Shown: positions 2,811 through 20,827 of the stretch, piece after piece
Layout of the letters: each line of letters starts with the position of its first letter
Position numbering within the stretch: position 1 is the first letter of the stretch
DNA from: a virus
Taxonomy: Duplodnaviria > Caudoviricetes
DNA length: 64,000 nt
Direction: 5' to 3' (one strand)
Virus record (IMG/VR): IMGVR_UViG_3300029930_000001
Location: 1 to 64,000 of that record
Made by a program: the position numbers and the translations under genes
The notes under the pieces: model-generated
Told to the model about the DNA's origin: nothing
What the model saw: the letters and a program-made list of their open reading frames with translations, nothing else
Databases searched by the model: none

Positions 2811-3815
2811 ATGGCTCACCAGTTCACCTCCGGCGCTTTCTTCAACGGCAAAGCCGCCTGGCATCGTCTTGGCACTGTCCTTGATGGCACCCTCCCTGCT
2901 CGCGAGGCATTCCGCCTGGCCGATGCTGATTGGGACGTGGTCTCCACTCCCATTTTCGACCCCACCGGCCAGCCCATCGAGGGCTACCAGGCCATCTCTC
3001 GCGGCGACAACGGCACCGTCCTCAGCGTTCAGAAGGACTCCTACACCATCGTCCAGAACGAACAACTCATTCGTCTGGCCGAGGCCCTGCACGAAGATGC
3101 CTCCATGGATGCCGTGGTTGTTCTGCAGGAAGGTAGAAAAGTGGCCTTCACTGCTCGCATTAACAACGCAGAAGGCGAAGTGGTGAAAGGCGATGAAATC
3201 CACCAGTATTTCGTCGGCACCACCAGCCACGATGGCACCATTGCATTCCAGGCGATCTTTTCGCCTATTCGCGTGGTGTGCATGAACACGCTCTCGGCCA
3301 CGCTCAACCATGCTGCTCGTGCTGGCGCCAGCAAGCGCATGAGCATTCGTCACACGGCCAATGCCAACTCTCTCATCGATCGTCTGCCCGAGATCATCGA
3401 CATGAAGCGGCAGCAATTCACTGCCACCATTGAAGAGCTGCAGGCAATGGCTGCCAAGCCCTGCACGTCTGAAATGTTCAAGCAATATTGCCAGCAAGTG
3501 TTTGCCGACCAACTGGCCGGCACCATCAACGACAAGCGTGGCGATAAAACCACTGCACGTCCCAAGACCATTGCAGATCTTCCCCAGTGGGACTCCCTAG
3601 CCAACAAATTCGCTGGCGATGGCATTGGTTTCGATATCAAAGGCGTGCGTGGCACAATGTGGGGTGCGTACAACACCGTCACTGAGTTCCTCACGCACGA
3701 AGCTGGTCGTGGCGATGCAGACAACATCGACACTGCTCGCCGCCGCCTGGAAAGCCTCTACTGGGGCAGCGCTGCAGCCACGCTGAACAAGGCTCACGCC
3801 CTGGCCCTGGCCTGA
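2811..3815 (+). CDS. DUF932 (TIGR03299-like) phage/plasmid protein
   Basis: AWHRLG, Y..VQN, L.EGRKV, TSHDGT, PIRVVCMNTL, HT..A, G..GT.WGAYN.VTE motifs. Confidence 0.9.
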   Translation: MAHQFTSGAFFNGKAAWHRLGTVLDGTLPAREAFRLADADWDVVSTPIFDPTGQPIEGYQAISRGDNGTVLSVQKDSYTIVQNEQLIRLAEALHEDASMDAVVVLQEGRKVAFTARINNAEGEVVKGDEIHQYFVGTTSHDGTIAFQAIFSPIRVVCMNTLSATLNHAARAGASKRMSIRHTANANSLIDRLPEIIDMKRQQFTATIEELQAMAAKPCTSEMFKQYCQQVFADQLAGTINDKRGDKTTARPKTIADLPQWDSLANKFAGDGIGFDIKGVRGTMWGAYNTVTEFLTHEAGRGDADNIDTARRRLESLYWGSAAATLNKAHALALA

Positions 3816-3903: not shown

Positions 3904-4092
3904 ATGCTCTCCCAACCATCTGCTTTCATCGAATACAAGGTGACCATGGAGCCCGTCAATGCTCCTTGGGAAAGCGTTGTCGTGGAGCGTTTCAACGGCT
4001 CCACTGCCGAGCGCGACGCCTTCCGCCTAGCACGTTCTCTTGACGGCCTGGAAGGGGCTGTCGTTCGCGTTAGCTGCTCTCAGTGCTGGTGA
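3904..4092 (+). CDS. hypothetical protein
   Basis: 62 aa ORF with CCATG start context like the other early genes. Confidence 0.6.
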   Translation: MLSQPSAFIEYKVTMEPVNAPWESVVVERFNGSTAERDAFRLARSLDGLEGAVVRVSCSQCW

Positions 4093-4097
4093 CTGCC

Positions 4098-4499
4098 ATG
4101 CTCATTCTCATTCGGGGCCTTCCTGGTTCAGGCAAATCCACTCTTGCAAAAGCAATGATTGGTACTGTTGCTGATGAACATTGGGAAGCTGATATGTTTT
4201 TTATGGAAGGTGATAAATATACCTTCGCTCCTCATCTTCTTCCTGCTGCACATTCATGGTGCCAATTTCGTACTCTCGATGCCCTCAAGAAAGGCAAGAG
4301 AGTGGTGGTGGCCAACACCTTCGTAGAGCTATGGGAATTGCAGCCCTATTTCAACATGGTGAAAGAGCTCCAGTTGCCCTGCATGCTGATTGAAGCCAAA
4401 GGCTCATGGAAATCGCTTCATAACGTGCCAGAAGAAACTATTGCCAGCATGAAGCGACGTTGGCAAGGCGTTGCTCCCTCGACAAACATTCCACTCTGA
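4098..4499 (+). CDS. P-loop kinase, AAA_33 / polynucleotide-kinase-like
   Basis: Walker A GLPGSGKST, EADMFF, VVVANTF..WE..PY, HNVP. Confidence 0.85.
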   Translation: MLILIRGLPGSGKSTLAKAMIGTVADEHWEADMFFMEGDKYTFAPHLLPAAHSWCQFRTLDALKKGKRVVVANTFVELWELQPYFNMVKELQLPCMLIEAKGSWKSLHNVPEETIASMKRRWQGVAPSTNIPL

Positions 4500-5192: not shown

Positions 5193-5453
5193 ATGGCATT
5201 CCGTTTCCGTTCCTCCTCTGAGCCTTCCATCTTCTCCCTGATGGCTCCCAACTTCGATCTGGTGGAATTTGTCATCTTCCCTGGCCGCGACGATGTGATG
5301 GTGCAGAAATACACGCTGAAGCTCGCTGGCGGCCGTTCCTGGCACGCTCCTGACGGGCGTCCTTCTCATCCCTCCACTGAAAAGGCCCGTGCCATCTGGC
5401 AGGAGCTTCGCACCCTCGGCTACCGCCCTCGCTCTGAATACAACGGCCTTTGA
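5193..5453 (+). CDS. hypothetical protein
   Basis: 86 aa ORF after promoter and hairpin leader. Confidence 0.65.
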   Translation: MAFRFRSSSEPSIFSLMAPNFDLVEFVIFPGRDDVMVQKYTLKLAGGRSWHAPDGRPSHPSTEKARAIWQELRTLGYRPRSEYNGL

Positions 5454-5498
5454 TCAAGACAAAGGGGCGCACTAGGCGCCCCGCTTCCCCTTAAAACA

Positions 5499-5684
5499 AT
5501 GGAAACCATCAACATTCTTGCCATCAGCAATAAAGGCAGAAGCCGCATAGGCACCCACATCACCACTGCCATTGTTGAACAAAACCATCACGATAAACTG
5601 TTCATTGTTCTGCCCCAGTTCAATCAATGTCGATGGATAAAGAAAAACAACGATCCTGATTTCCGCATTATTGAAAATGTCTAG
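5499..5684 (+). CDS. hypothetical protein
   Basis: 61 aa ORF. Confidence 0.6.
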   Translation: METINILAISNKGRSRIGTHITTAIVEQNHHDKLFIVLPQFNQCRWIKKNNDPDFRIIENV

Positions 5685-5734
5685 CTGAAAAGCTGATATT
5701 TGCCCTTTATCGAGAAAACAGCTAATTCACAACC

Positions 5735-6037
5735 ATGCTTCCCACCATTCGCACTAGTTCTGACTGCGGCCCCTACTTTCCCGTTTCCAAGCATAGTTAT
5801 CAAGCAGCAAGCTTACGTGATGTGCTTTTCCATGTGAGGCTTGCAATGGAAGACAGCGAAGACCTTATTGGTATCTTCAATGCTGAAGGCAAATGCAAAG
5901 GCATCTGGGCTAACGAGCCTGACGCTATTCCCGATGGTGAAGGAGTATGGGACAGAGGGCCAAATTGCTACGTGCTCTACAGGCCTGATAGTACAGGCGC
6001 TGGTATCTTCAACTACATGCTCGCTCGCATTAATTAA
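5735..6037 (+). CDS. hypothetical protein
   Basis: 100 aa ORF, CCATG start. Confidence 0.65.
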   Translation: MLPTIRTSSDCGPYFPVSKHSYQAASLRDVLFHVRLAMEDSEDLIGIFNAEGKCKGIWANEPDAIPDGEGVWDRGPNCYVLYRPDSTGAGIFNYMLARIN

Positions 6038-6039
6038 TC

Positions 6040-6213
6040 ATGCTTCTCGTTGATTTCTTTTCAGAAGACTGCTGCAAGGGCACTGAGCTCGTCGAAGGCT
6101 GGTACTGGTACCAGGACGATGGTGATGATGTGGGAGGGCCGTATGAAAGCGAAGAAGCGGCTATTGAGGCCGCTGAACAAGGGAGTGGGTGGTATATTCA
6201 AGGGACTCGCTAA
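6040..6213 (+). CDS. small acidic hypothetical protein (57 aa)
   Basis: Translated by hand: MLLVDFFSEDCCKGTELVEGWYWYQDDGDDVGGPYESEEAAIEAAEQGSGWYIQGTR; GWYW...GPY.SEEAA pattern. Confidence 0.65.
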   Translation: MLLVDFFSEDCCKGTELVEGWYWYQDDGDDVGGPYESEEAAIEAAEQGSGWYIQGTR

Positions 6214-6254
6214 AAAAACGGTATAGGGACTCGCTAAAAAACGGTATAGGGACT
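6201..6254 (+). repeat. 24/23-bp tandem repeat with A-tracts
   Basis: AGGGACTCGCT-A7/A6-CGGTAT twice plus a third AGGGACT at 6248. Confidence 0.9.
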
Positions 6255-6299
6255 GGCGAGAATGCGGTAATATAGGCGCTCTCTACTAGGCCGCTTTTC

Positions 6300-6335
6300 T
6301 AGTACAAATGTACCATTACTAGTACAAATGTACTA
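6300..6335. repeat. two GTAC-N4-GTAC palindromic boxes
   Basis: TAGTACAAATGTACCA (6300-6315) and TAGTACAAATGTACTA (6320-6335). Confidence 0.85.
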
Positions 6336-6361
6336 CTGGGCTGATACGGGCTCTGATACGG

Positions 6362-6471
6362 TTCCGTAGCATGATCAGGCGCTGATCAGGATCATGATCA
6401 CGGCTGGGGATGCTGCTGATCATGATCACACTGTCAGCCGATATGATTCCGTAGCATGATCACGCTGGGGC
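6362..6471. repeat. TGATCA/GATC cluster (pac- or ori-like)
   Basis: 7 GATC at 6373, 6384, 6390, 6396, 6418, 6424, 6458, six of them TGATCA; TTCCGTAGCATGATCA repeated at 6362 and 6447. Confidence 0.8.
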
Positions 6472-6515
6472 GATGGTGCCTGAGAACGGGAACCATTCTC
6501 ACCGTCCCGCACAGT

Positions 6516-6601
6516 GTTACGGATTGTTTCAATCCGGCCGGCCTCCTCTGGCTCGCGGCTCCCTCCTCTGTATTGTCTCGACAGAGACGGGCGACCGTCT
6601 C
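6516..6601 (+). promoter_or_regulatory. early promoter module (HLR1-like box, TATTGT -10, 5' hairpin)
   Basis: GTTACGGA-TT-GTTTCAAT 6516-6533; TATTGT 6571-6576; GAGACGG-GCGA-CCGTCTC 6584-6601; paralog at 7369-7454. Confidence 0.55.
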
Positions 6602-6621
6602 GCTCCTCTGTCTTCCTAATC

Positions 6622-6987
6622 ATGCTCGCTCCTTCTCTCCGCTCCCCTTCCTTCCCTCCTCTCTCTGATGCGCTCGATCGCCTCGGCTCTCTGCCATGGG
6701 AGGAGATCGGCTCTGCTCTGCTCTCTGCTCTCCTCTTCTCTCTCGCTCTTTGTCAGGCTCTCGCTGTTCGCCTCTGGCGCGAGAGAGGCCGCCTCGCTCC
6801 GCTCCTCCGCTCTCTCGCCTCTGCTCTCGATCGCCTCGCCTCCTCCCTGCCCGAGCCTCTCTCCTCCTCCTCCCCTCGCTCTGCTCTGATCAGCGCTCTG
6901 ATCGAGAGCGGAGCTGAGGCCTCCTCTGTAGCGAAGGCCTCCCGCTCTGCTCTGCTCAAGAGAGCCTCTCGCCTCGGCCTCCTCTGA
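6622..6987 (+). CDS. L/S/A/R-rich putative membrane protein
   Basis: ATG 20 nt after the promoter hairpin; hydrophobic segment IGSALLSALLFSLALCQALAV. Confidence 0.6.
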   Translation: MLAPSLRSPSFPPLSDALDRLGSLPWEEIGSALLSALLFSLALCQALAVRLWRERGRLAPLLRSLASALDRLASSLPEPLSSSSPRSALISALIESGAEASSVAKASRSALLKRASRLGLL

Positions 6988-7029
6988 TCTCCTCCTCACC
7001 AGGGAGGCCTCAGGCCTCCCTTCCCTCCC

Positions 7030-7209
7030 GTGGACTCCGTCTCTCTCTCTCGCCGCATCGCAACAATTGATCGGCTCCTGCCTCGCCTCTCGGGAGAGAG
7101 CGCCGATCGCCTGATGATCGAGCGCCGCTCTCTCCTTCGCCTCCTCCATGGAATCCCCTTAGGAGCTCCTCTGCCTCTCTCTGTCTCCTCTGCTGATCTC
7201 CTCTCCTGA
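7030..7209 (+). CDS. small hypothetical protein (59 aa, GTG start)
   Basis: Translated by hand; TGATG overlap with next ORF. Confidence 0.45.
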   Translation: MDSVSLSRRIATIDRLLPRLSGESADRLMIERRSLLRLLHGIPLGAPLPLSVSSADLLS

Positions 7210-7382
7210 TGCTCCCCTCCTGCTCTCGCTCTGCCTTGCTCGATCGGGCAGAGGCTCTCGGCCTCGCCTCCTCTGGCCTTCCCTTCGTGCTAGAGGAGCT
7301 CGCTCGCTGGCTCCCCTCTGCCACGCTTGAGGCCTTCCTTTCTGACCTAGAGGAGATCCTCTCCAATTGTGACGGAATCTGA
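7209..7382 (+). CDS. small hypothetical protein (57 aa)
   Basis: Translated by hand: ...VLEELARWLPSATLEAFLSDLEEILSNCDGI; amphipathic helical pattern. Confidence 0.55.
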   Translation: MLPSCSRSALLDRAEALGLASSGLPFVLEELARWLPSATLEAFLSDLEEILSNCDGI

Positions 7383-7454
7383 CAATCCGAGAGGGGGGGC
7401 CTTGCCTCCTCCTCTGGCTCCCCTATTGTCTCTCTTGAGACGGACGACCGTCTC
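7369..7454 (+). promoter_or_regulatory. early promoter module
   Basis: GTGACGGA-AT-CTGACAAT; TTGCCT(7402)-16 bp-TATTGT(7424); GAGACGG-ACGA-CCGTCTC hairpin 7437-7454. Confidence 0.6.
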
Positions 7455-7475
7455 CTTCCTCCTGCTCTGCTGATC

Positions 7476-7718
7476 ATGTTTCGCTCTGCTCTCGCTCTCG
7501 CTCCCTGCCTCGCTCTGTTCGCTGGCACCGTAGGCTTCGGCCTCTCGGCCTCCTCCTATGGGCAGAGAATCTCCTCCGCTCCCTCCGCTCTCGCTGCTGC
7601 TCCCTTCGCTGCTCCCTTCGCTCTCTGCGCCGCTGCTGCTGCTGCCTCCTTCGCTCTCGCCGCTGCCTCTGCCTGCGACGCTGGAGAGAAGCTCTCTCGC
7701 CGCTCTCGCTTCTCCTGA
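7476..7718 (+). CDS. Ala-rich small membrane protein
   Basis: Two hydrophobic stretches; ATG just after the promoter hairpin. Confidence 0.55.
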   Translation: MFRSALALAPCLALFAGTVGFGLSASSYGQRISSAPSALAAAPFAAPFALCAAAAAASFALAAASACDAGEKLSRRSRFS

Positions 7719-7789
7719 GGCCTGAGGCCTCCCTTCTCAGAGGGGAGGCCTTCTCTCTGCTCTCTGTTCGCTCCTTCTCTCCTCTCCTG

Positions 7790-8929
7790 ATGGCCTCCGC
7801 TCTGCTGGCTCCTCCCTCTCCCCTTGCCTTCCCTCGCTCCCCTCGCCTCCCTCAGGAGCTCCGCTCCTTCCTTCAAAGATTCGGCCTCTCCGTAGATTCC
7901 CTCCTCACCTCTGGCTCCTCCAACGCGAAGCTCGCTAAGGGGAGCGGCCTCGCCTTCTCTGCTCTCCTCCACCTCCTCCCCTCTCGCTCCCTCGCTCGTG
8001 CTCTCTCCCCTTCCCTCCCTGGCTCCGTTGCCGTAAGGGGAGAGCTTCCCGGTCTTCGCGAGCTCGCCGATAGAGAAGGCCTCACCGCTCGCGCTCTCTT
8101 GTTTGACGCCTGCCCTTTCAAAACCGCATCCTGCGAAGATCTCTGCCTCGCCTTCTCTGGCCATGGGGGGCTCTCCCTTAGTGTCGGCCTCTGCCGCGCT
8201 CGCCGCTCTCTGGCTCTCCTCTCTGATCGTGACGCCTTCCTCCGCTCTCTCCTATGGGCTGCTGGCCTCTCCTATCGCAAGGCGCGCCGCCTCGGCCTCC
8301 CCTTCGCTCTCCGACTGAATGGAACGCAAGAGCTCCCATGGCACGATGGCTCCCTCTCTGCCTTCCTCTCTTCCGAGGAGGCCGCTGCTCTCTCCTCTCT
8401 GTTCGGCGCTCCCATCCCCTCCGGATTCCTCACGATTCCCGAGGCTCTCGCCTCTGTTCCCTTCCTCTCCCTTTATGACTACGCCAAAGCTCCTCTTCAT
8501 GGCAGAGCTGGCCTCCTAGCGATGCGACAGGCAGGCATCCACACCACCGCCTCCTTCGCGGCTGATCAGCCAAACGGCTCCGTTCGCGCTCTCGATGCGA
8601 TCGAGAGCGGCTTCTCTCTCGCTGTGCCCATCCTCCTCCCCAAAGGGGCTCCCCTTCCTGTCTCCCTCTTCATGCGAGACAGCCGCGGTCGCGAGGCTCT
8701 CCTCCAATGCATCGACGGAGACCTTAACGATCTCAGGATGCTCGATCCTTCCCCCTCCCCCGGATTCTCAGGCCTCGTCGTGCTCCTCCGTCTCAAGCGA
8801 TCGAGAGGAGCCAAGCCAGAGAGCGCCGCTCGCTTCGCTCTCGCTCGCTCCGTCTCTCCTTCCTTCCTCCCTCTGGCAGGAGGCGGCTCCTATCGCTTCT
8901 CTCGCGCTGACCTCCCTTCCTTCGCTTGA
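7790..8929 (+). CDS. GP88-like phage protein (Cys-triad, possible Fe-S)
   Basis: LLT...NAKLAK, CPFKTASCEDLC, RLNGTQELPW, LYDYAK, DGDLNDLR.LDP motifs survive in an L/S/A/P/R-biased sequence. Confidence 0.7.
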   Translation: MASALLAPPSPLAFPRSPRLPQELRSFLQRFGLSVDSLLTSGSSNAKLAKGSGLAFSALLHLLPSRSLARALSPSLPGSVAVRGELPGLRELADREGLTARALLFDACPFKTASCEDLCLAFSGHGGLSLSVGLCRARRSLALLSDRDAFLRSLLWAAGLSYRKARRLGLPFALRLNGTQELPWHDGSLSAFLSSEEAAALSSLFGAPIPSGFLTIPEALASVPFLSLYDYAKAPLHGRAGLLAMRQAGIHTTASFAADQPNGSVRALDAIESGFSLAVPILLPKGAPLPVSLFMRDSRGREALLQCIDGDLNDLRMLDPSPSPGFSGLVVLLRLKRSRGAKPESAARFALARSVSPSFLPLAGGGSYRFSRADLPSFA

Positions 8930-8932
8930 GCG

Positions 8933-9154
8933 ATGCTCCCACGCCTCCTCCCCCTCTCCTCTCGCTCCTTCCTCCTCCTCCTCTCCTCCGCTCCCCCTAA
9001 CCTCCCCTTCCTCCTCTCCTTCTCCTCCTGGCACACTAGGGAGAGCGGCTGGCTCTCCCTCCTCTCCCTTCGCCTTCCCTTCCTCTGGCTCCTCCTCCTT
9101 CGCTCTCGCTCCTCCCATGATCGCCTCCGCTCCCTCTCCCTCCCCCTCCCCTAA
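8933..9154 (+). CDS. low-complexity hydrophobic ORF
   Basis: ATG 3 nt after the GP88-like stop; could be a by-product of composition. Confidence 0.35.
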   Translation: MLPRLLPLSSRSFLLLLSSAPPNLPFLLSFSSWHTRESGWLSLLSLRLPFLWLLLLRSRSSHDRLRSLSLPLP

Positions 9155-9350
9155 CCCGCCTCTCTTCATCCTCTCCTACTCTGAACGTCTCGCCTCCTAC
9201 TACACAGCCGCGTCCTTTGATTCTCTAGAGGATGCGCAATACGCTCTCGATCGCCTCCGCGATGCAGAGGAAGATTGCTCCTCTCTCTCCCTCCGTGACG
9301 CCATCGCCGAACTAGAGGAACAGATCAGCGCTCACCTAGCCTCCCTCTAG
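9117..9350 (+). CDS. small acidic helical protein (77 aa)
   Basis: Internal ATG of track ORF 8595-9350; C-terminal part has 13 D/E versus 4 R. Confidence 0.55.
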   Translation: MIASAPSPSPSPNPPLFILSYSERLASYYTAASFDSLEDAQYALDRLRDAEEDCSSLSLRDAIAELEEQISAHLASL

Positions 9351-9398
9351 CCTCCCTCTAGCCTTCCCCTAGCCTCCTTCCCATAGCCTCCCTAGCCC
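9337..9398 (+). repeat. TAGCC(T)CC tandem array
   Basis: Six TAGCC units starting at 9337, 9348, 9359, 9370, 9384, 9393 (mostly 11-bp period). Confidence 0.85.
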
Positions 9399-9424
9399 GC
9401 CTCCTGAGCTCTCAGGATGGCGGG
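9396..9424 (+). terminator. strong GC hairpin ending the tract operon
   Basis: CCCGCC-TCCTGAG-CT-CTCAGGA-T-GGCGGG; no clear U-tract. Confidence 0.45.
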
Positions 9425-9502
9425 TCTCTCGCTGTGTGCTCCCATACTGGCGACAGGCTATCGGCTGAGAAGAGAGAATAACAACAATATATGCGGAGAC
9501 AC

Positions 9503-9530
9503 AAAAAAAAGGCCCCAATTGGAGCCCTTT
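9503..9530 (-). terminator. intrinsic terminator (minus strand)
   Basis: Minus strand reads AAAGGGCTCCAATTGGGGCC-T8. Confidence 0.65.
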
Positions 9531-9538
9531 CGTGTTAA

Positions 9539-9691
9539 TCAATTGCAGTCAATCTCCTGTTCGATTCTCTCCATATCTCGCGCAATCTGTTTCAGATTGT
9601 CGAGAGTTTGGTGGAGATCTTTCAGAGATTGCTCATCTCTGCGGCGCATCTCTTCGATGCGAGCAGCGAACAGATCTGCGATCATTCCCAT
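9539..9691 (-). CDS. 50 aa coiled-coil protein with its own promoter and terminator
   Basis: Translated by hand: MGMIADLFAARIEEMRRRDEQSLKDLHQTLDNLKQIARDMERIEQEIDCN. Confidence 0.65.
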   Translation of the reverse strand: MGMIADLFAARIEEMRRRDEQSLKDLHQTLDNLKQIARDMERIEQEIDCN

Positions 9692-9734
9692 GATTCAGTT
9701 AGCAAGGTGCGCGCGGGATCGCTCCCACGTGACT

Positions 9735-9786
9735 GTACTATAGGCGATAGTACGCCCGATGGCAAGCGATTGTCACACTTTGTAAC
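9735..9786 (-). promoter_or_regulatory. sigma70 promoter with RpaB/HLR1-like box and operator palindrome
   Basis: Minus strand TTGCCA(9765-9760)-17 bp-TATAGT(9742-9737); GTTACAAA-GT-GTGACAAT at 9786-9769; GTACTAT-AGGCG-ATAGTAC at 9735-9753. Confidence 0.7.
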
Positions 9787-9831
9787 ATAAGCCTTACCTA
9801 TCAATCGCGCCAGTCCCATAGGCGCAGGTGA

Positions 9832-9872
9832 TGGTACAAACGTACCAGGGAGCAGTAGTACGGCCGTACTAC
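9832..9872. repeat. two GTAC-N4-GTAC palindromic boxes
   Basis: TGGTACAAACGTACCA (9832-9847) and the perfect 18-bp palindrome GTAGTACGGCCGTACTAC (9855-9872). Confidence 0.85.
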
Positions 9873-9950
9873 CGGGGTGGGGCGGGCATACCCCTTCAAA
9901 ATGTGGCGTTAAAAATGACCTACTTTTTTGCTTTAGTATTTATACCTAGT

Positions 9951-10436
9951 TTAAAAATCCAAGCTATTAACGATGGCTTCTCCCACGGCTTTTGTTACTA
10001 GTTTTAGTTCTTCGTGAGATGCATCGCTTTTGATTTGATTAGCGCGATAGCTAATTATCCATACATTTCCCTTGACGTAGCCACGTTCGGGAACAATGCG
10101 ATCCAGTGATGGGCTATTGGGCATGTGTCCATTGTGTCGTTGTAGTGACCATTCAAGCGGCATGCCAAGAACTGGACAGTGAGAAGGAGCAATAGAGCGA
10201 AGGTATTCACTGTCAATGTCAAATGGAAGATCTTTAGTTTTCGCTCTAGACCTGGCATTTGTAATCATGTTAGCCGTTTGCTGCGACAATGGATTTTGTT
10301 GTCGATATTTTTTTTCTAATTTTCTTCGACATATTTTGCATTGAGATTTAAGCCCATCTTTACTAGAAGAATCTTTATAAAACAACTTCGTTGAGAGCAG
10401 TTGCTTGCAAAGGCAACATTGTTTTTGAGAAGGCAA
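9951..10436 (-). CDS. free-standing HNH-type endonuclease with N-terminal Zn finger
   Basis: CxxC...CxxC; CPVLG, SPSLDRI..ERGYVKGNVWIIS..AN; AT-richer than its flanks. Confidence 0.8.
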   Translation of the reverse strand: MPSQKQCCLCKQLLSTKLFYKDSSSKDGLKSQCKICRRKLEKKYRQQNPLSQQTANMITNARSRAKTKDLPFDIDSEYLRSIAPSHCPVLGMPLEWSLQRHNGHMPNSPSLDRIVPERGYVKGNVWIISYRANQIKSDASHEELKLVTKAVGEAIVNSLDF

Positions 10437-10555
10437 TGCGGAGGGCTAGTAGCTGAGCGCATATTAACAAGCCAATGTCTACATGCCGAAAGCAAGTCCG
10501 TAGGACGCAGCTTGAGGCATCTCCTAGACCTTCTCAGACGATCATCTAGACCAAT

Positions 10556-10902: not shown

Positions 10903-11078
10903 TCTTGTCCAGAGTGTACTGGCAGTAGGAACGTCGTCTAGACAGAGCTGGACGGAAAGCTGCATCTAGCCAATGCCAGACAGCAGCTTCGCTACGTCTA
11001 TCGTAACAGACGCTGTGGGGAGTTGTTTTGTCCCTGTTGTCCCGATGCTGGTATAGTAAGGCTTTTCAAGGGGCAAGC

Positions 11079-11774
11079 ATGGTGCAGGAGAAGCCGAAAA
11101 AGCGCAAAACGACGGGATGGGTGTATGTGGTGCAATGGTCGTCAATGCCATGGCACGTGAAAATTGGCTTTTCCAAATCGCTGAAGGATCGTTTTGCATC
11201 GTTCCTTACGGCCTCTCCAGACACGCTGGTGGTTGTAAAGGCTTTTGAAGCGGACCAGGAAGACGAAGCAGATCTTCACGGACGCTTCCAAGCCAGTCGA
11301 GATGTGGGCGAATGGTTTCGCCTTTCTCCATCGTTAAAAACCTTTTTAGAAAGCGAAGCGCCTTGTCAAACGCTGGAAGCGAAGGTGAAATTTGGGAGAG
11401 GGTATGAGGATCGCATTAAATGGCTGCCAATGCGACCACGGCTAGAGGAGGTGCTACAAGAGCTGCATCAAGAAAAGCGTTTGCCTCGTTTCGTGAGGAA
11501 TGCACGTATTTACGTGTTGTGGGCTTTGAATGATTTAGAGCTTTGTGATTATTTTGCCACTTCCAATGCCATCATTCATCATGAAGCCAATCGCAATGCT
11601 TATCAAGCAAAAACGATTTACAACCAATTGATAGCATTAGAGGAGGAGGGTCTTATCGAGAAGAACCAAGGGAAAGTATTTGCTTTGCTTCCGAAAGGTT
11701 TTGAAGAACTTGGCAAAGCGGAAGATGAGCACGCGGCAAAACGGAAAAGCGCAAGAAGCTTAAGACTTGGTTAA
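11079..11774 (+). CDS. GIY-YIG (T5orf172/MUG113-like) nuclease domain plus C-terminal winged helix
   Basis: GWVYVV...VKIGFS...R...L.TASP...E..LH.RF......GEWF; C-terminal IYNQLIALEEEGLIE; extended -10 TGGTATAGT upstream. Confidence 0.75.
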   Translation: MVQEKPKKRKTTGWVYVVQWSSMPWHVKIGFSKSLKDRFASFLTASPDTLVVVKAFEADQEDEADLHGRFQASRDVGEWFRLSPSLKTFLESEAPCQTLEAKVKFGRGYEDRIKWLPMRPRLEEVLQELHQEKRLPRFVRNARIYVLWALNDLELCDYFATSNAIIHHEANRNAYQAKTIYNQLIALEEEGLIEKNQGKVFALLPKGFEELGKAEDEHAAKRKSARSLRLG

Positions 11775-12041: not shown

Positions 12042-12126
12042 GGAAAATTTCCGCTTCTCCATTGCTCTATTGCGCTAGTCTTCCTTTTGTTAATCGCGGG
12101 GGACCATGGTCCCCTTTTGTTGTCTT

Positions 12127-13557
12127 ATGAAGCTGAAGGAAAAGGCAAAATGTGAGCCGATTGCTCGGACGGGGCGCGTGCAAGATTGGCTTGATGATCC
12201 TGAAAGCAGGCTTGCTGTTAGCTGCACCACGTTTGTAGTGGACGATTCAATGGAAGGGCCGGACGGCATTGAAGCCTCGTGGCGCTTTGTGAGTCATGCT
12301 CTTCGTAATGCCGCTGGCGCTGCAGTGCATCTTTCCGAGCTGCGTCCCAAAGGCGAAGATAATGGCAAAGGGCTGATTGCTAGCGGGCCAGTAAGTTTTG
12401 CAAAGATTTACAGCAAGCTCAACGAAATTCTTCGTCGCGGCGGAAAATTTCGCAATGGTGCAGTTACTTTGCATTTGGACTACACGCATCCCGATGCCAT
12501 CGAATTTGTTTCTACTTCCCGCAGCGAACTTCCTTGGGCCAAGCGTTGCTTGAACGTCGATAGTAATTTTCTTTCTGCATCGTCTCCTGAGCTGATCAAT
12601 GCCTGTCTTCGTGCCATCTCTTCTGGCGATCTCTGGCTCAACAAAATCCGCTATGACCACAATGGGAAGCGGCTGCGACCAAACGTTTGCCTTGAGGTAT
12701 ACCTTCCGCATCGCGGCACTTGTCTTTTGCAGCACGTTAATTTGGGCGCATGTTCGTTGGACATGGTTGAAGGAGCGTTTATTGAAGGCATGAGCCAATT
12801 ATGCGAGCTCCATCCCAATACGGGCGTGGGCGACACTGGTGAATATCTTCCTCCTTCCATTGACAAGCAAGTTGGCCTGGGTATTCTTGGTCTTGCTAAT
12901 TTTCTGGCCATTCAAGGCGTGAGCTATAAGGATTTCGGCGATGCGCTAGAGGCGTATCTTGAGGAAGACCCTCATCCTTGGTGCCACCATTGGAAGGATA
13001 CCGTGGCCGGAAAAACAGTCCACGCTTTGGACAAAGGCATTCAAAGCGCTGCTGAAATTGCTCTCGCGCATGGAATGGACCGTGCTTTCTGCATTGCTCC
13101 CACTGCGTCGTGCTCCTATCGCTATTTGGATAGTAGTGGCTTTACTGCTGCCCCTGAAATCGCACCCCCCATTGATCGCCTTGTTGATCGCGACAGCGAA
13201 ACCATGGGTGTTGAGCGTTTTGAATATGGGTCGGTAGAAATTGCAGAGGAAGTTGGCTGGAAAGCTTTCCGTAAAGTTGCCGATGGCATTTGCACTCTTT
13301 TCCATCGCACTAGCTTATTCCATGGTTATTCGATGAACTGGTGGAGTGATATGGTTTCTTGTGATGAGGCTTTCATTCAAGAATGGCTTGATAGCCCGCA
13401 AACTTCCATCTATTATGCCCTTCAAGTGCAAGCTGGCACTCAAGCCAAGGACGATGTTGGAGTAGAATTAGGAGAGAGCTTGAGCAGTTTCTTCTCCCTT
13501 GAGGAGAGCGAAAGCTGTTCACTGGATGGGGGCTTTTGCAGTTCTTGCGCTGAGTAG
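12127..13557 (+). CDS. nrdA: ribonucleotide reductase alpha subunit, minimal cyanophage (class O-slash) type
   Basis: SCT, PNVCLEV (N-x-C-x-E), CLLQHVNLG, IAPTASCS, YY motif, C-terminal CSSCAE; about 476 aa with no ATP-cone. Confidence 0.9.
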   Translation: MKLKEKAKCEPIARTGRVQDWLDDPESRLAVSCTTFVVDDSMEGPDGIEASWRFVSHALRNAAGAAVHLSELRPKGEDNGKGLIASGPVSFAKIYSKLNEILRRGGKFRNGAVTLHLDYTHPDAIEFVSTSRSELPWAKRCLNVDSNFLSASSPELINACLRAISSGDLWLNKIRYDHNGKRLRPNVCLEVYLPHRGTCLLQHVNLGACSLDMVEGAFIEGMSQLCELHPNTGVGDTGEYLPPSIDKQVGLGILGLANFLAIQGVSYKDFGDALEAYLEEDPHPWCHHWKDTVAGKTVHALDKGIQSAAEIALAHGMDRAFCIAPTASCSYRYLDSSGFTAAPEIAPPIDRLVDRDSETMGVERFEYGSVEIAEEVGWKAFRKVADGICTLFHRTSLFHGYSMNWWSDMVSCDEAFIQEWLDSPQTSIYYALQVQAGTQAKDDVGVELGESLSSFFSLEESESCSLDGGFCSSCAE

Positions 13558-14408: not shown

Positions 14409-15077
14409 ATGGAAGAAATCTGGAAGCCCATTCCAGGGTATGAAGCATGCTACGAAGCATCAAGTATTGGGCGCGTTCGCTCGCGCAGAAGGGTCGTGAT
14501 TGACGTTAAGGAAGGCAGGCAGCGCAAGCGTGTTTTCAAGGAGCGCATTCTTTCGCCCAATATATCGGCAAAGCATGGACGCCCCTCTGTGATGCTATCT
14601 GTCCAGGGGCAAACAAAGCGCATTCTTGTCGCGCGATTGGTTTGCCTTGCTTTCCATGGACTACCGCCAGAAGGAAAAACCAATGTTTTACATTATGACG
14701 ACAATAGCGATAATAATGTGCCTGAGAATTTGCGATGGGGAACGCTTAAAGAAAACGCCGCAGACATGCGTCGCAACCTCGGTTATTGGCCTGCCTATAT
14801 CGATGGTCGTTCATTGCGGCCACGAAAGCCACTGGGGGATCCCCTTATGAACGAAGCACAAGTGAGAGTGCTCCGTCGACTCCCTGACATGCGCCATCTT
14901 AGGGGAATTAGGACTGACTTGGCTAATGCTTGGGGAGTAAAGCCTACTAGCATTACAAGTGCGAAGAATGGCGGCAAGGGGTGGGAAGAGCTTTCCACCG
15001 AGCCACTTTGGGATATGGCAGAGCGGCTCTCGGGCAAGTTTATTGGGAGGGAAAGGCCCAAAAGGAAAGCTTGCTAA
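14409..15077 (+). CDS. NUMOD4-HNH homing endonuclease
   Basis: EIWKPIPGYE..YE.SS.GRVRS (NUMOD4); V.RLV..AF.G, LH.DD...NN...NLRWGT..EN..D (HNH). Confidence 0.9.
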   Translation: MEEIWKPIPGYEACYEASSIGRVRSRRRVVIDVKEGRQRKRVFKERILSPNISAKHGRPSVMLSVQGQTKRILVARLVCLAFHGLPPEGKTNVLHYDDNSDNNVPENLRWGTLKENAADMRRNLGYWPAYIDGRSLRPRKPLGDPLMNEAQVRVLRRLPDMRHLRGIRTDLANAWGVKPTSITSAKNGGKGWEELSTEPLWDMAERLSGKFIGRERPKRKAC

Positions 15078-15214: not shown

Positions 15215-15219
15215 CATTT

Positions 15220-15286
15220 GCGCTGAAGTGTTGGTACACGCTAGGCACATAGCCTAGAATCCTGGAGTTCGATTCCCAGCAGCGCC
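15220..15286 (+). tRNA. degenerate tRNA-like element, anticodon CAT
   Basis: Acceptor GCGCTG/CAGCGC, D-arm GTGT-TGGT-ACAC, anticodon stem CTAGG/CCTAG with loop CACATAG, TTCGATT loop with bulged T-stem; no CCA. Confidence 0.5.
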
Positions 15287-15300
15287 TTTTCTATTGAGCC

Positions 15301-16069: not shown

Positions 16070-16229
16070 TAAAGAAGCAGACAGAATCGCCTTTGTTCGT
16101 ACCATCATCTTTGCATCGTATTTAATTACCAATGCTTTTATTGTTGCTGGCGTAGTGAGGCATTGGAATGATGAGCAACCAAAAGGTTGCGTCGAGACAA
16201 TAAAAAAGGGAGCTTTCGCTCCCCATTGA
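16020..16229 (+). CDS. small membrane protein (cyanophage-type)
   Basis: MWRLWAKALG...EADRIAFVRT + transmembrane segment + VVRHW. Confidence 0.7.
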   Translation: MWRLWAKALGSKETKCNKEADRIAFVRTIIFASYLITNAFIVAGVVRHWNDEQPKGCVETIKKGAFAPH

Positions 16230-16250
16230 TCATGCTTGCTTTGTGGCAAA

Positions 16251-16334
16251 TGCGACGAGCGGGACTTGAACCCGCACGATCTGACGATCAACAGATTTTA
16301 AGTCTGGGGCGTCTACCAATTCCGCCACCGTCGC
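16251..16334 (-). tRNA. trnL: tRNA-Leu(TAA)
   Basis: GCGACGG acceptor, GGCGGAATTGGTAGACGC D-arm, CTTAAAA anticodon loop, long variable arm, GTTCAAGTC T-loop, discriminator A; CCA not encoded, no intron. Confidence 0.92.
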
Positions 16335-16509
16335 AAGATGACAGGGGCGTCGAGAGCGGGGCTTCAATCCGCCTTTGTACGACATTTCACCATGAGTTGG
16401 CCCATGGCCCCTGTTCCCCTGTGGTCTGTAGAGACAACGCTGCCATTGTCTCGTTTTAACGCTGCGCAGCGTGCTTCGCGAAAGCCCCAAAAGCATAGCG
16501 TATACAGTG

Positions 16510-16817: not shown

Positions 16818-18185
16818 CTACGAGATCAAGCTTTCAATCCAGCCAATGTCATCGTCGCGACTAGCAGCAAGAATGGCGCCTGCCATTGCAAAAGCAAAGT
16901 CGTCAATGCCAGTAGCTTTGCCGCCAGTTACGCTCCATTGCCCGCTTTGTTTGTAGACAACAGTGAGATTCTTTAATTGAAGAATGGCCTTCTCATGGTT
17001 GTAAAGATTGATTTGTCCTGCATTGAACAGTTCACGCATTTTGCTGAAAGCTTTCATTTTGGAGCTAACAGTCCAAGTGAGTTCAGTGATGGGCAAGTCT
17101 TGAGCAAGGTGCTGGATGGTGCCGGCACTATTGAACTGGTCCATCACAATCGTGTCAAACACATAAAGCTTATGTTGCTCCTTAATCCAATCTTCCACTG
17201 CATTGATATTCACTTCCATCCTTCCATTGATTTCAAAATCAGCAACAAAGGAATGGAATTTATCAACGACTAACGTGCCGCCTTCAAAATGCACAATACA
17301 AGCAGTGTAATCATCACGGCCAACTCCGCCCCGGGCAGGGTCAAGGGCCAAGACATAAGCTCCTTGGAAGCGTGGGTCTGGGGGGAGAGTTTTTCGGCGC
17401 TCATCAATACAGGCATCAATAACATCACTAGCAACGAGAGCCGAGAGGTTGGTGGAGAATTGAGCTCCATATTCAACTTTAAACTTCTCCGGATCACGCG
17501 CCCGTTCTGTGTCAAGAAACTCTTGCGAAATATTTGGGTTCATCTCCCACGTTGGGAGATTCACTGCTTGCATGAATGGGAAACGGCCAGAGCTTGCTTC
17601 TTTGAAATGCTGGTAGAAGATGCCGTCCGTCAACCATGGAGAGGATAGTTCAAGAATGCGTCCACTTCCTCCAAACTGAGCAATAGCAGGAGAAAGTGCG
17701 TCGTAGATACCTCTTCCTCCACTGTTTGCATCGCCTTCAGTGGCAAAAGCAAGTTCGTCAAACACTGCAGCCGCACAGGCAAGACCACGGGCAGCGCGAC
17801 CAGAAGTGGGAATAGCTTTAAAAACGCAGTTGTTGCTAATTTCAAGGATGTCTGCTGTTTCGCGAACAATCTCTTGAGCGAAGGGACTGTCAAGAATTAG
17901 TTGGCGAATATTATTGAGAGCAATGCGAGCCTGATCTTGACTGTTGGCGACGGTAACAATGTACCAGCGCTCCCCTTTTCTTACGCGGCTGCGGTATTGA
18001 TCTTCCAGGACAAAGCACATATAGGCGCATGCCACTGCAGCCATGAGCGTTTTGCCTGAGCGTCGGCCCAATGCCCATACGGCATGGCTCTTGCCTGGAG
18101 AGAAGAAATTGTCGAGGATTTTCGCCTGTGACGGGAAAAGCTCTAGCTTGAGAGCGTGCTTGGCGAAGTCTGAGCATTTAAGCAT
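16818..18185 (-). CDS. terL: terminase large subunit
   Basis: GRRSGKT Walker A, VFDE Walker B, LSSP coupling motif, RNase H-like ALDPA...DD and C-terminal DDFAFA. Confidence 0.92.
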   Translation of the reverse strand: MLKCSDFAKHALKLELFPSQAKILDNFFSPGKSHAVWALGRRSGKTLMAAVACAYMCFVLEDQYRSRVRKGERWYIVTVANSQDQARIALNNIRQLILDSPFAQEIVRETADILEISNNCVFKAIPTSGRAARGLACAAAVFDELAFATEGDANSGGRGIYDALSPAIAQFGGSGRILELSSPWLTDGIFYQHFKEASSGRFPFMQAVNLPTWEMNPNISQEFLDTERARDPEKFKVEYGAQFSTNLSALVASDVIDACIDERRKTLPPDPRFQGAYVLALDPARGGVGRDDYTACIVHFEGGTLVVDKFHSFVADFEINGRMEVNINAVEDWIKEQHKLYVFDTIVMDQFNSAGTIQHLAQDLPITELTWTVSSKMKAFSKMRELFNAGQINLYNHEKAILQLKNLTVVYKQSGQWSVTGGKATGIDDFAFAMAGAILAASRDDDIGWIESLIS

Positions 18186-18748: not shown

Positions 18749-20827
18749 ATGGAAAACGAAGCCGTTGATTTGGGACATGCCACTGCTGGTGGAGTGAGGG
18801 CCGATGGGTTGCAGAATGTCTTGATCGGCATGGGAACCGGCCGTGACAAGGCGCAATATACTAAAACTACGGCAACTGTTTTTCTTGCTCAAGAAGAGCT
18901 GGAGAATTTGTATGGTGAATGGCTTCCTCGTCGCATTGTTGACATTTATGCTGACCAGGCCACTCGGAAAGGATTCAAGGTATTGTTTGGCGGCGATGGA
19001 GTTAGGGCAGAGGAGGTGCAAGGCGTTGAGCAGATAATTGAGGATTTATACATCCTTGAGCATTTGAACCTGGCTGCCAAGAATGCTCGTTTATACGGCG
19101 GGGCATGCTTGCTGCTGTTTATTGACGATGGTCGCCCGGCTTATATGCCAGTGGACAAACGCAACATCCGTCGCATTGAAGAAATTGAATGCCTTGATCG
19201 CTGGCAAATTGCACCAGTGATTAATGAGGAAAATTTATACGACTATTCAAAAGCAACGTATTATCAAATCATTTCTGGTGATTTAATCAACGAGCCGCAA
19301 CTGTCCTACATCCACAAGGACAGGATCCTGCGTTTTGATGGGGATTGGCTGCCTTATCGCGTAAGGCAGCGTAACTATGGTTGGGGCATGAGCAGCTTGC
19401 AAACTGTTTATGACAGCTTCCGCCATTATTGGACGGGCTTAAATTCAGCGGCAACGCTGCTCACTGAGTTTGATATTTTTGTTCATAAAGTGAGAGGCTT
19501 AGCAGCGATGCTTGCCGCCGGCAAGGAGAGCTCCATTCGTGATCGTTTGCAAGTGAACGACATGAGCAAGAGCATTTATCGCGGCTATGCCATTGATGCG
19601 GAAAAGGAAGAGCTTGAATTTATTAGCCGCAACTTTGGAGGCATTGGAGAAATCCTTGAGAAACTGCGCGTTGATATTATTGGCGCCAGCAAGATTCCTC
19701 ACACTGTTTTATTTGGCGAGAGCCCTAGTGGCTTAGGCGCCACTGGTCGCAGCGAAGAGCGAGATTTCGCCAAGACGCTGGCCGATTATCAAAGTGTCCA
19801 TTTCAAGCGCCCCATCAAGAAGCTGATGGAGCTCATCATGCTGAGCAAGGAAGGGCCAACGAAAGGAGAGCTGCCCGAATCCTGGCGCATTGCTTTCAAC
19901 CCATTGTTTGAGCTTAATGAGCGCGAAATGGCTGACGTACGTGCGCGTGTGGCGGCTGTAGACGGCCGCTACATCCAGCTTGGCGTACTGAGTCCCAAGG
20001 AAGTGGCAGACGCTCGCTATGGCGGTTCTGAGTGGAGCATGGAACTCACTCTCGATCCCAATGTCATTCGCGAGCTTCCCACTCAAGGTGGGGGTGGTTC
20101 CACTCCAAATAAGGGTGGCTTAGCGGTGCCTCCTGGCGGTCGAGATCCTCTTGACGAGGAGAATGGCACGCTTCCCATGGACGGCAGTAGGGAAGTACAA
20201 GATGCCGCTGGCCTTTTCTTGCCGCGAGACTTAGAAGAGATGCGTGGAGACGTGGTGTTCACGGACAAGGAGCTTCATTCTCGCGCCGTTAGTGCTGCAA
20301 AAACAAAGTTCAAAGTGTGGCCATCCGCTTATGCCAGTGGTTATGTGGTGCAGCAATACAAGCAAATGTATAAGAAGAAGCACGGCTCTTTAAGCGGCGC
20401 GTTTAAGAGCGACGAACAAGAACTGCACGCAGACGATTTAGATCAATGGTTTAAGGAGAAGTGGGTGAGGATTGGTGCCAATGGTGAAATCTTGGGGCCA
20501 TGCGGGGCGCGAGAAGAGAAAGAAGGCAAGCCCAAGTGTCTTCCTCAAGCAAAAGCGCAAGCAATGAGCAAAGAGGAGCGTTCGACAATTGTTGCTCGCA
20601 AGCGTAAGGCCGACCCCGATCCCGAACGTCATGGTCCGGCGAAAATGGTTAGCAGCAAAACAGACGCCATTGAACCCATGAAAGCACAAGGCCTCATCCT
20701 TGCTGACGTTGACGAAGCTTCGTTGATTGACCAGGAAGATATTGATGCTGCATTGTCACAATGGAAAGAAGAAGCGCCAGAACGCTTTAAGGACATCTTG
20801 GAGGCTGAAGATGCAAGGCCTCAATGA
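18749..20827 (+). CDS. portal protein (DUF1073 type) with long C-terminal extension
   Basis: RADGLQN...GMGT, RRIVD..ADQATR, RLYGGA, GWG.S, IPHTVLFGESP.GL.ATG, F.PL; about 250 extra C-terminal residues. Confidence 0.9.
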   Translation: MENEAVDLGHATAGGVRADGLQNVLIGMGTGRDKAQYTKTTATVFLAQEELENLYGEWLPRRIVDIYADQATRKGFKVLFGGDGVRAEEVQGVEQIIEDLYILEHLNLAAKNARLYGGACLLLFIDDGRPAYMPVDKRNIRRIEEIECLDRWQIAPVINEENLYDYSKATYYQIISGDLINEPQLSYIHKDRILRFDGDWLPYRVRQRNYGWGMSSLQTVYDSFRHYWTGLNSAATLLTEFDIFVHKVRGLAAMLAAGKESSIRDRLQVNDMSKSIYRGYAIDAEKEELEFISRNFGGIGEILEKLRVDIIGASKIPHTVLFGESPSGLGATGRSEERDFAKTLADYQSVHFKRPIKKLMELIMLSKEGPTKGELPESWRIAFNPLFELNEREMADVRARVAAVDGRYIQLGVLSPKEVADARYGGSEWSMELTLDPNVIRELPTQGGGGSTPNKGGLAVPPGGRDPLDEENGTLPMDGSREVQDAAGLFLPRDLEEMRGDVVFTDKELHSRAVSAAKTKFKVWPSAYASGYVVQQYKQMYKKKHGSLSGAFKSDEQELHADDLDQWFKEKWVRIGANGEILGPCGAREEKEGKPKCLPQAKAQAMSKEERSTIVARKRKADPDPERHGPAKMVSSKTDAIEPMKAQGLILADVDEASLIDQEDIDAALSQWKEEAPERFKDILEAEDARPQ

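Follow-up and report, generated by a model that had tools for sequence, protein, structure and literature searches.

A purine-starved gene cassette in a likely freshwater cyanobacterial phage and its relatives

We analysed a window of 64,000 nucleotides (nt), bases 1-64000 of a 74,934-bp IMG/VR virus record (IMGVR_UViG_3300029930_000001) that CheckV rates as complete. In this window a coding tract of about 3 kb (6516-9430, plus strand) has a sense strand that is strongly depleted of purines, above all of adenine. The tract forms the body of a cassette with two putative transcription units, and one of its genes encodes a GP88-like protein of 379 amino acids (aa). A search of IMG/VR with this protein gave 47 related loci, all of which (47/47) have an A-poor, C-rich island of 1-4 kb with sharp edges around the gene. 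Fifteen of them (68-88% identity; clade 1) share the dinucleotide pattern of the window, hereafter its dialect, and 32 (45-49% identity) are GC-rich sister cassettes, with ~68% GC in genomes of ~50% GC. The features of the locus are listed below together with their conservation in these relatives (ORF, open reading frame).

6516-9430, plus: purine-starved tract, defined by base composition, dinucleotide odds ratios and shuffles
6514-6533, plus: tandem upstream boxes of unit 1 (GTGTTACGGATT + GTTTCAAT), in the same column in 20 sites of 11 loci
6571-6579, plus: TATTGTCTC box of unit 1, resembling a -10 element (TAnnnT); conserved
6584-6601, plus: leader hairpin 1, 7-bp stem with GCGA (GNRA) loop; conserved, with compensatory changes
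6622-6987, plus: ORF of 121 aa; 68-99% identity in clade 1, ~50% in GC-rich sister cassettes; no family match
7001-7021, plus: perfect 10-bp hairpin (AGGGAGGCCT / AGGCCTCCCT) after the first ORF
7030-7209, plus: Arg-rich ORF of 59 aa; conserved in clade 1 only
7209-7382, plus: 57-aa ORF, start codon overlapping the stop of the preceding ORF (ATGA); 73-98% in clade 1, 55-69% in sister cassettes
7366-7386, plus: tandem upstream boxes of unit 2 (ATTGTGACGGAAT + CTGACAAT)
7424-7432, plus: TATTGTCTC box of unit 2
7437-7454, plus: leader hairpin 2, 7-bp stem with ACGA loop
7476-7718, plus: Ala-rich, hydrophobic ORF of 80 aa; conserved in clade 1
7715-7759, plus: nested AGGCCT-centred hairpins between ORFs
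7790-8929, plus: GP88-like ORF of 379 aa (phrog_1617), from profile match, motifs and structure model
8933-9154, plus: ORF of 73 aa, largely a (CCT)n-like repeat; weakly conserved, coding status uncertain
9117-9350, plus: possible 77-aa ORF in a different frame; conservation limited to loci L008-L010, uncertain
9336-9377, plus: tandem repeat (CTAGCCTCCCT x 3.8) at the 3' end of the tract
9506-9531, both strands: bidirectional terminator-like hairpin that closes the cassette and a convergent 50-aa gene on the minus strand

The sequence-only reading of this DNA had credited the tract with promoters of its own and at least five genes, and the comparison with relatives bears this out, with two conserved promoter/leader modules and six conserved ORFs. 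In each module, tandem ATTGTGAC-type boxes are followed by a GC-rich hairpin, the TATTGTCTC box, a 7-bp hairpin, a leader made of C and U only and the ATG; start codons are not preceded by a purine-rich Shine-Dalgarno sequence. The upstream boxes of unit 1 read ATTGTGACGGATT + GTGACAAT in relatives, and the distance from upstream boxes to TATTGTCTC box is fixed at 37 nt. The TATTGTCTC box is invariant in 15 of 16 aligned leaders, the remaining one being TATCGTCTC. In the leader hairpin 84% of the cells are paired, two pairs have changed on both sides and the loop is either GCGA or ACGA; compensatory changes keep this RNA-type motif. The module also heads some of the GC-rich sister cassettes. 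A search of 5500-10500 against Rfam gave no match at E <= 0.1.

The tract is open in all six frames, because stop codons need purines or their complements. The six plus-strand ORFs (6622-6987 to 8933-9154) are conserved better than the antisense frames, and two of the small ones are also present in GC-rich cassettes. Variants sampled in other lakes (runs X8 and X10, region 6987-7201) have a GC-rich hairpin of 33-37 nt in place of the ORF at 7030-7209, and this small gene therefore appears to be dispensable or variable. Another exact copy of the TATTGTCTC box, the third, is found at 16150-16210 on the minus strand, just downstream of the tRNA-Leu(UAA) gene, where a different hairpin (GCAACC-TTTT-GGTTGC) follows it. 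The gene behind this box (16202, minus strand) is normal in composition, so that the leader is not by itself sufficient for the composition of the tract.

The 379-aa protein matches phrog_1617 in PHROG (7.1e-21, residues 30-342) and Pfam PF17338 (GP88; 6.9e-5, 23.2 bits), where this recoded copy falls just below the cut-off of 24.4 bits. Nearly all of its 120 homologues among the matches listed (44-81% identity) carry PF17338 in their precomputed annotation, and the profile match places the protein in the PF17338/phrog_1617 family. Three cysteines, C108, C115 and C119 (CX6CX3C), are invariant, and the protein also has the motifs GHGG, DGDxxDxR and LRxKxSxG. The structure model is confident (predicted local distance difference test 84.5, predicted template modelling score 0.86) and resembles an alpha/beta barrel, its least confident part being residues 120-128, the loop after the cysteine motif. 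Radical SAM enzymes make up 11 of the 12 top structural neighbours, at a level in VIA-align (Z 5.0-5.9, root mean square deviation 4.0-5.6 A) below that of true relatives, and the cysteine spacing differs from their CX3CX2C. Foldseek gave no match against the PDB at E <= 0.001, and leads from the Atlas were viral only (DUF7227 and DUF5131). The product is predicted to be enzyme-like. In the GC-rich sister cassettes L020, L022, L023, L030, L032, L042, L043 and L050 the GP88 frame is open for 100-350 codons further upstream, which may represent either an N-terminal extension or a mere open frame in stop-poor DNA.

The base composition of the tract on the sense strand is A 0.103, C 0.425, G 0.209 and T 0.264, i.e. 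69% pyrimidine, with a peak of 82% in 8900-9100; no other window of 300-500 nt in the 74.9-kb genome rises above ~0.63. Its edges are sharp, since the skew sets in directly downstream of the box whose last base is 6533 and dies away at ~9430, ~75 nt ahead of the terminator at 9506-9531. The steps depleted, as odds ratios over the tract, are GT (0.27), AC (0.42), TA (0.47), TT (0.49) and CA (0.59), and those enriched are CT (1.67), TC (1.50), GA (2.29) and AG (1.94). The hand counts of the sequence-only reading for 6601-7200 proved exact (A 54/600, GT 7, AC 3, TT 12; TG 32 in our recount), and its control stretch (2821-3120) contains 30 of the two steps, GT 11 and AC 19, where 31 had been noted. 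Its estimate of ~55 GT+AC expected from composition in 6601-7200 is close to ours, ~57, against 10 seen, and its remark that TG is spared agrees with the odds ratio of 0.88 over the tract.

The depletion of GT and AC also survives the control for amino-acid sequence and composition, a check that had been named in advance. When codons were drawn from the position-specific base composition under a fixed amino-acid sequence, we obtained z = -7.6 for GT and -5.6 for AC. With the tract's own synonymous codons permuted, the values are -4.4 for GT, -4.9 for AC, -6.9 for TT and -3.2 for TA, and depletion remains at codon junctions. Runs of T are likewise scarce: 53 copies of TTT would be expected from base composition but 8 are present, and TTTT is absent (control mean 20). 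No specific enriched word, such as the anti-Shine-Dalgarno CCTCC (73 vs 59) or a Chi-like oligomer, was found beyond lower-order Markov expectation.

All three codon positions are affected (A 0.09, 0.14 and 0.07, pyrimidine 0.60, 0.68 and 0.80 at positions 1, 2 and 3), and so are the intergenic spacers (392 nt; A 0.10, C 0.41). Codon adaptation alone is therefore ruled out, because the bias is common to the spacers and to codon positions 1 and 2. These results support a constraint that acts on the nucleic acid, and not on codons or protein needs. Synonymous choice is context-dependent: third-position T is allowed after C (GCT 0.57, TCT 0.35, CCT 0.39) and shunned after G or T (CGT 0.07, GGT 0.04, CTT 0.10), and TTA and TTG make up 2% of the Leu codons in the tract vs 36% in other phage genes. 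The proteins are pushed toward L/S/A/P/R, as had been noticed from the sequence (L 20%, S 16%, A 14%), at the expense of T (1.4% vs 7.2% in other genes), V (2.1% vs 6.3%) and N (0.8% vs 4.9%).

An explanation at the level of translation is that NNY codons, which host tRNAs with G34 read, would allow immediate translation independent of the U34 or ANN-reading tRNAs that tRNA nucleases of phage or host might remove. It would fit the third positions, 80% C or T, the Lys, Asn, Gln, Thr and Ile contents, each 3-6 times lower than in other genes, and the avoidance of TTA and TTG although the phage has a tRNA-Leu(UAA). At four-fold degenerate sites the sister cassettes have C 0.47 and G 0.25, which presumably resembles the codon usage of high-GC picocyanobacteria. 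However, the bias of the spacers and of codon positions 1 and 2 falls outside such an explanation, as do the dinucleotide effects at codon junctions. In addition, CGT and GGT, which are usually favoured in highly expressed genes, are avoided here, and we consider this explanation improbable.

Purines and pyrimidines are segregated in runs (mean pyrimidine run 4.3 nt vs 3.2 expected; maximum 29), and complementary steps shift together (AG with CT, GA with TC, AC with GT). Both observations would be accounted for by a property of the duplex or of transcription, be it weak rY-dR hybrids that form few R-loops, H-DNA or an i-motif, or a protein-binding lattice. The two strands nevertheless differ, with TT at 0.49 and AA at 1.43, an asymmetry that such a property would not be expected to produce; 3 kb of coding DNA far exceeds known structural elements, and no longer word goes beyond the dinucleotide prediction, which argues against a specific binding site. 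A duplex property therefore strikes us as a poor candidate.

The scarcity of thymine on the template strand, where TT makes up 1.5% of the steps vs 8.3% elsewhere, could also be seen as hardening against ultraviolet light, since few transcription-blocking pyrimidine dimers would form and the first genes could be read from sun-damaged DNA. The A-poor sense strand is common to both clades, the samples are freshwater metagenomes (sunlight exposure of the phages being assumed) and one of the weak structural matches to the GP88-like protein is spore photoproduct lyase (Z 5.3). On the sense strand, however, TC+CT is 3 times more frequent (35.6%), so that total lesions and replication blocks should rise, the depletion of GT and AC is left unaddressed and the structural hint lies below the level of true relatives. 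We give this idea very little credence.

The tract is not an assembly artefact or chimera, which is ruled out by independent contigs from two samples that bridge it and by the 47 related loci. One Logan contig (sample X1, the probable source run) spans 6106-9780 with zero differences, at a word depth of 11.3 vs 12.8-12.9 in the flanks, and another (second sample, X5) spans 5236-8839, again with zero differences, at a depth of 11 vs 11.1. The depth of 1x also argues against a collapsed terminal repeat of 3.6 kb. The runs holding the sequence are freshwater metagenomes. The portal protein shares 67% identity with its counterpart in Synechococcus phage S-CBS4 at 92% coverage, the genes for ribonucleotide reductase (ORF 12106-13557), terminase (16818-18185) and portal (18749-20827) follow the S-CBS4 gene order, and one homologue of the 379-aa protein sits in a Synechococcus metagenome-assembled genome; the source is therefore likely to be an S-CBS4-like siphovirus of freshwater picocyanobacteria. 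Both the skewed tract and the GP88 gene are absent from S-CBS4 itself. We found no near-identical phage records, and a large search of the literature turned up no account of a tract of this kind.

Skewed tracts in synteny, which the sequence-only reading had proposed to seek in relatives, were found, and the observation is thereby confirmed for a phage family and not for one genome only. Within clade 1, GT and AC lie at 0.2-0.5, CT and TC at 1.4-1.8 and GA and AG at 1.6-2.3. Most of the GC-rich loci have TG 1.4-1.9, TC 0.4-0.7, GT 0.5-0.7 and AC 0.6-0.9, with three of them (L025-L027) intermediate, TG and TC being near 1.0-1.2. At four-fold degenerate sites clade 1 has A 0.08, C 0.50, G 0.11 and T 0.30, and the GC-rich group A 0.10, C 0.47, G 0.25 and T 0.19. 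A C-rich, A-poor sense strand is thus a trait of the whole family, and purine starvation is its extreme form. The skew spans cassettes of differing length (1.9-4.2 kb) and gene content.

The composition of clade 1 has persisted, since at 67% protein identity its four-fold sites are nearly saturated (identity 0.41 vs 0.35 for random) and the composition is kept nonetheless. The force on composition is therefore a lasting one, and the dialect is not something left over from a foreign donor. Among the fixed replacements with respect to the sister clade (n=63), 36 remove purines and 13 add them, the shift (A>S, V>L, W>F, H>L) favouring pyrimidine codons.

Such a force might be mutational. A heavily transcribed non-template strand could lose purines through depurination and 8-oxoguanine (G>T, A>T), with slippage spreading CT-rich units. 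The four-fold sites of the two clades differ mainly in G (0.25 to 0.11) and T (0.19 to 0.30), the tract has many imperfect CT-rich micro- and minisatellites, e.g. (CCT)n at 8944-9029, and the bias tracks transcription units and is most extreme at codon position 3, all as this explanation would have it. The signature of transcription-associated mutation is, however, C>T on the non-template strand, which would lower C, yet C stands at 0.42-0.55. Nor would mutation predict the avoidance of GT and TT at codon junctions, or T only after C. The replacements are directional while conserved motifs stay, and a gene with the same type of promoter is unskewed. We regard a purely mutational origin as unlikely.

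The backbone of the phage is closest to carriers of the GC-rich cassette (terminase 90-91%, portal 90-93% and capsid 89-92% identity), and the genes of the tract are only 46-49% identical to those of these close relatives. They are 70-78% identical to those of a phage with a distant backbone (terminase 77%, portal 65%, capsid 86%), which suggests that the tract is a cassette exchanged between phage lineages. A search of the flanks and of five full relatives for genes beyond the cassette that vary along with the dialect found none. The genome as a whole is strongly mosaic (compared with G001-G005; L051-L070), as head and replication genes are ~90% identical to those of G002 and G003, the tail-fibre region at 37-52 kb is common to G003 only or to none, and the cassette is common to G001.

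From the sequence alone the tract had been interpreted as first-entering, pre-early DNA that was recoded against restriction enzymes, GTN protospacer adjacent motifs (PAMs) and similar DNA readers until its own products act. In this interpretation the recoding at the nucleic-acid level stands, and early expression dependent on the host is plausible, because the tract avoids TTA and TTG and would have no need of the phage tRNA-Leu(UAA). First entry is not supported: the depth of 1x speaks against a collapsed terminal repeat, the tract lies 6.5 kb inside the contig with no terminal repeat of the T5 type, and in related near-complete contigs the cassette is found at about 10, 17, 31, 43 and 57 kb, at no fixed contig end. 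In one of these (G002) the cassette lies ~31 kb from the ends, which share a 128-bp overlap that we read as circular closure of the assembly, so that the cassette would be in mid-genome. Typing of the terminase by Pfam, which bears on packaging mode, gave no match.

A general avoidance of restriction did not hold up either, since the palindrome load is not lowered overall. There are 136 four-base palindromes vs 171 +/- 11 in shuffles (46.7 per kb vs 53.3 in the rest of the genome) and 46 six-base palindromes vs 49 +/- 6, the latter being denser than elsewhere (15.8 vs 11.3 per kb). AGGCCT, CGATCG, CCATGG and TGATCA exceed every or nearly every dinucleotide shuffle. Compared with the flanks, GATC is 1.1-4.1 times denser across relatives (2-3 times in nearly all) despite the scarcity of A, in part perhaps as a by-product of GAT being preferred over GAC before C, and GGCC is enriched 1.8-8 times. 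An avoidance of PAMs is not supported either: 97 GT/AC sites (43 + 54) remain in 2.9 kb, and the sister cassettes at the same locus lack the signal, their GT and AC (0.5-0.9) being about the genome background (0.71 and 0.85).

Some observations remain on the side of defence against DNA readers. GTAC is absent from the tract and AT-rich palindromes nearly so, GT+AC is ~3 times below expectation, and the range of short words is reduced, with 39% of hexamers present on either strand vs 67% in same-length controls and 18.5% of 3-N6-4 bipartite words vs 28%. This narrowing would give a modest general escape at most. The exchange of the cassette between lineages is what an arms-race module might show, and its independence of phage tRNA fits early expression. 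Sites in duplex DNA, however, neither need nor explain a strand asymmetry such as that of TT and AA, and together with the palindromes, the remaining GT/AC sites and the position of the cassette this makes pre-early recoding a rather unlikely explanation.

Other features of the surroundings were noted. Palindromes of the GTAC-N4-GTAC type occur in both flanks (6302-6335; 9735-9753 and 9836-9872), and in the left one there are, in addition, clustered TGATCA sites (6369-6466) and a 23-bp tandem repeat (6201-6254). These arrays (6201-6471 and 9725-9872) look like operator- or origin-type arrays. Word depth at 9751-9876 is ~1.6-1.8 times that of the neighbouring sequence. The 50-aa gene at 9691-9539 has a leftward promoter-like site (TTGCCA-17-TATAGT; 9737-9786, minus strand) preceded by GTTAC...GTGACAAT tandem boxes, as in both cassette leaders, and since the same boxes stand at three promoters, one regulator may serve all of them. 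Outside the window, a G-rich repeat array (64790-65215 of the genome, minus strand) ends in GGGCGYGAGGAGCGC units; its pairing with the tract was considered and is not above that of shuffled arrays. The window also encodes tRNA-Met(CAT) at 15219-15287 and tRNA-Leu(TAA) at 16250-16335. Neighbouring genes lie at 1308-1664, 2811-3815, 4083-4499, 11028-11774 and 14409-15077, and the products of neighbours include DPBB lytic transglycosylase-like, DUF932, AAA_33 kinase-like, T5orf172/MUG113 and HNH/NUMOD4 endonuclease proteins.

The asymmetry between TT and AA, the match of the skew to the transcription units and their framing by RNA-type hairpins favour the transcript, or transcription, over duplex sites as the seat of the constraint, and the presence of the bias at all codon positions and in spacers sets it apart from codon adaptation. 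We infer that selection acts strand-specifically on the mRNA and that its benefit would be escape from nucleases, a reading that we put forward tentatively as the one we prefer. The cassette would be a self-contained module, exchanged between lineages and probably expressed immediately on infection from two transcription units, each headed by tandem boxes of the ATTGTGAC type, the TATTGTCTC box and a GNRA-loop hairpin at the 5' end, and it would close with a terminator. A lasting force would keep the sense strand poor in purines, above all adenine, along these units. The resulting mRNA, with hardly any A, U runs or UA, CA, UU, GU and AC steps, would offer few sites to single-strand endoribonucleases, and 5' and internal stem-loops would cap the transcripts, which would stay translatable by host tRNAs without Shine-Dalgarno sites. 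Candidate nucleases would be cyanobacterial RNase E, through its 'A-U clamp', other A- or purine-dependent RNases and RNA-targeting defences.

On single-stranded RNA, the RNase E of cyanobacteria favours sites with A at -4/-3 and U at +2 (PMC8682795). Sites of this kind number 39 per kb in the tract vs 104 per kb on other sense strands (2.6 times rarer), or 1.4 vs 9.5 per kb under a strict rule (7 times rarer), and they are also below the tract's own compositional expectation (39 vs 51 per kb). UA and CA, both depleted in the tract, are chemically and enzymatically labile steps in RNA.

Several results weigh against nuclease escape. GU and AC, the strongest depletions, match no RNase that we could name, and the co-variation of complementary dinucleotides (AG/CT, GA/TC, AC/GT) fits a property of the duplex equally well. 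An unstructured or hyper-structured mRNA was rejected, as the mean minimum free energy per 150 nt is -40.4 vs -41.0 in other genes, with z-scores alike. Genes behind a TATTGTCTC-plus-hairpin or hairpin leader are unskewed or mildly skewed (the gene at 16202, minus, of this genome, G000; a minus-strand gene in L014), and the shared leader also stands before sister cassettes that are rich in GC and much less depleted of purines. Lastly, no RNA run was listed among the public runs that contain the sequence.

Taken further, selection on the transcript would make the cassette a 'hardened' immediate-early operon, whose purine-starved messages would survive RNA-directed host defences or a host RNase boosted by the phage and be translated without Shine-Dalgarno sites or phage tRNAs; we consider this more specific proposal possible but doubtful. 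If it were true, a counter-defence would lie in base composition and not in a protein. Strand skews and compositional islands are familiar, but the bias of this operon is much stronger than usual: a coding operon of ~70-80% pyrimidine with 10% adenine, enzyme motifs rewritten, and a dialect held past synonymous saturation. Natural controls exist in the GC-rich sister cassettes at the same locus, since phages with ~90% identical structural proteins carry either version behind the same leader. Should mRNA survival be the cause, phages would evade attack at the RNA level by composition alone, and rules for stable, Shine-Dalgarno-independent expression in cyanobacteria could be drawn from the tract; should the cause be mutational, a transcription-linked process of purine loss not known so far would be revealed. 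In either case, tracts like this one make gene finders and family models less sensitive, as the six open frames and the Pfam score under the cut-off illustrate.

The first-step-transfer region of T5 and the class I early region of T7 are leading DNA that lacks certain restriction sites and encodes anti-restriction functions. Like them, the cassette groups a few genes under promoters of its own and would plausibly be expressed first, by host machinery alone, and its sequence content is unlike that of the rest of the genome. Unlike them, it has no terminal repeat and nothing puts it at a genome end; its palindromes are not depleted, its bias is strand-specific and reaches the amino-acid composition, and no anti-restriction protein was recognised among its products.

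The arrangement in the leaders recalls the nut site of lambda (boxA + boxB), as each early unit is headed by a linear box of 9 nt, a spacer of 4-6 nt and a short stem with a GNRA loop; a conserved linear box and a hairpin with a GNRA-type loop were both found. The only candidate for an N-like protein would be the Arg-rich ORF at 7030-7209, which has no family match. The TATTGTCTC box may simply be a -10 element and the hairpin the 5' end of the mRNA.

With Szybalski's rule, purine loading and the Rho-driven bias, the tract shares a skew that is strand-specific, tied to the direction of transcription and able to shape codon and amino-acid usage, but its sign is reversed with respect to purine loading, the sense strand being 69-82% pyrimidine. 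To our knowledge, cyanobacteria lack Rho. Rho drives a purine bias of bacterial genes, and C far above G together with T-richness is the signature of Rho-terminated sequence (PMC13323073). By this analogy, the pyrimidine-rich dialect would be affordable only where the host lacks Rho or has tight coupling.

Eukaryotic viruses deplete CpG and UpA/UpU against ZAP and RNase L. As in these dinucleotide-recoded genomes, avoidance in the tract goes beyond codon needs, acts at codon junctions and steers synonymous choice; the differences are that the carrier is a bacterial virus, that one cassette of 3 kb is concerned and that the steps are GU, AC, UU and UA, a combination for which we know of no matching sensor or nuclease. 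Closer to the likely host, the cyanophage P-SSP7 reportedly exploits RNase E of Prochlorococcus, with antisense RNA said to protect phage transcripts. The mRNAs of the present phage would likewise have to survive a single-strand endonuclease directed at A and U, and the protection that we propose would lie in the sequence itself, through the lack of A-U clamps and the presence of terminal hairpins, rather than in duplex formation.

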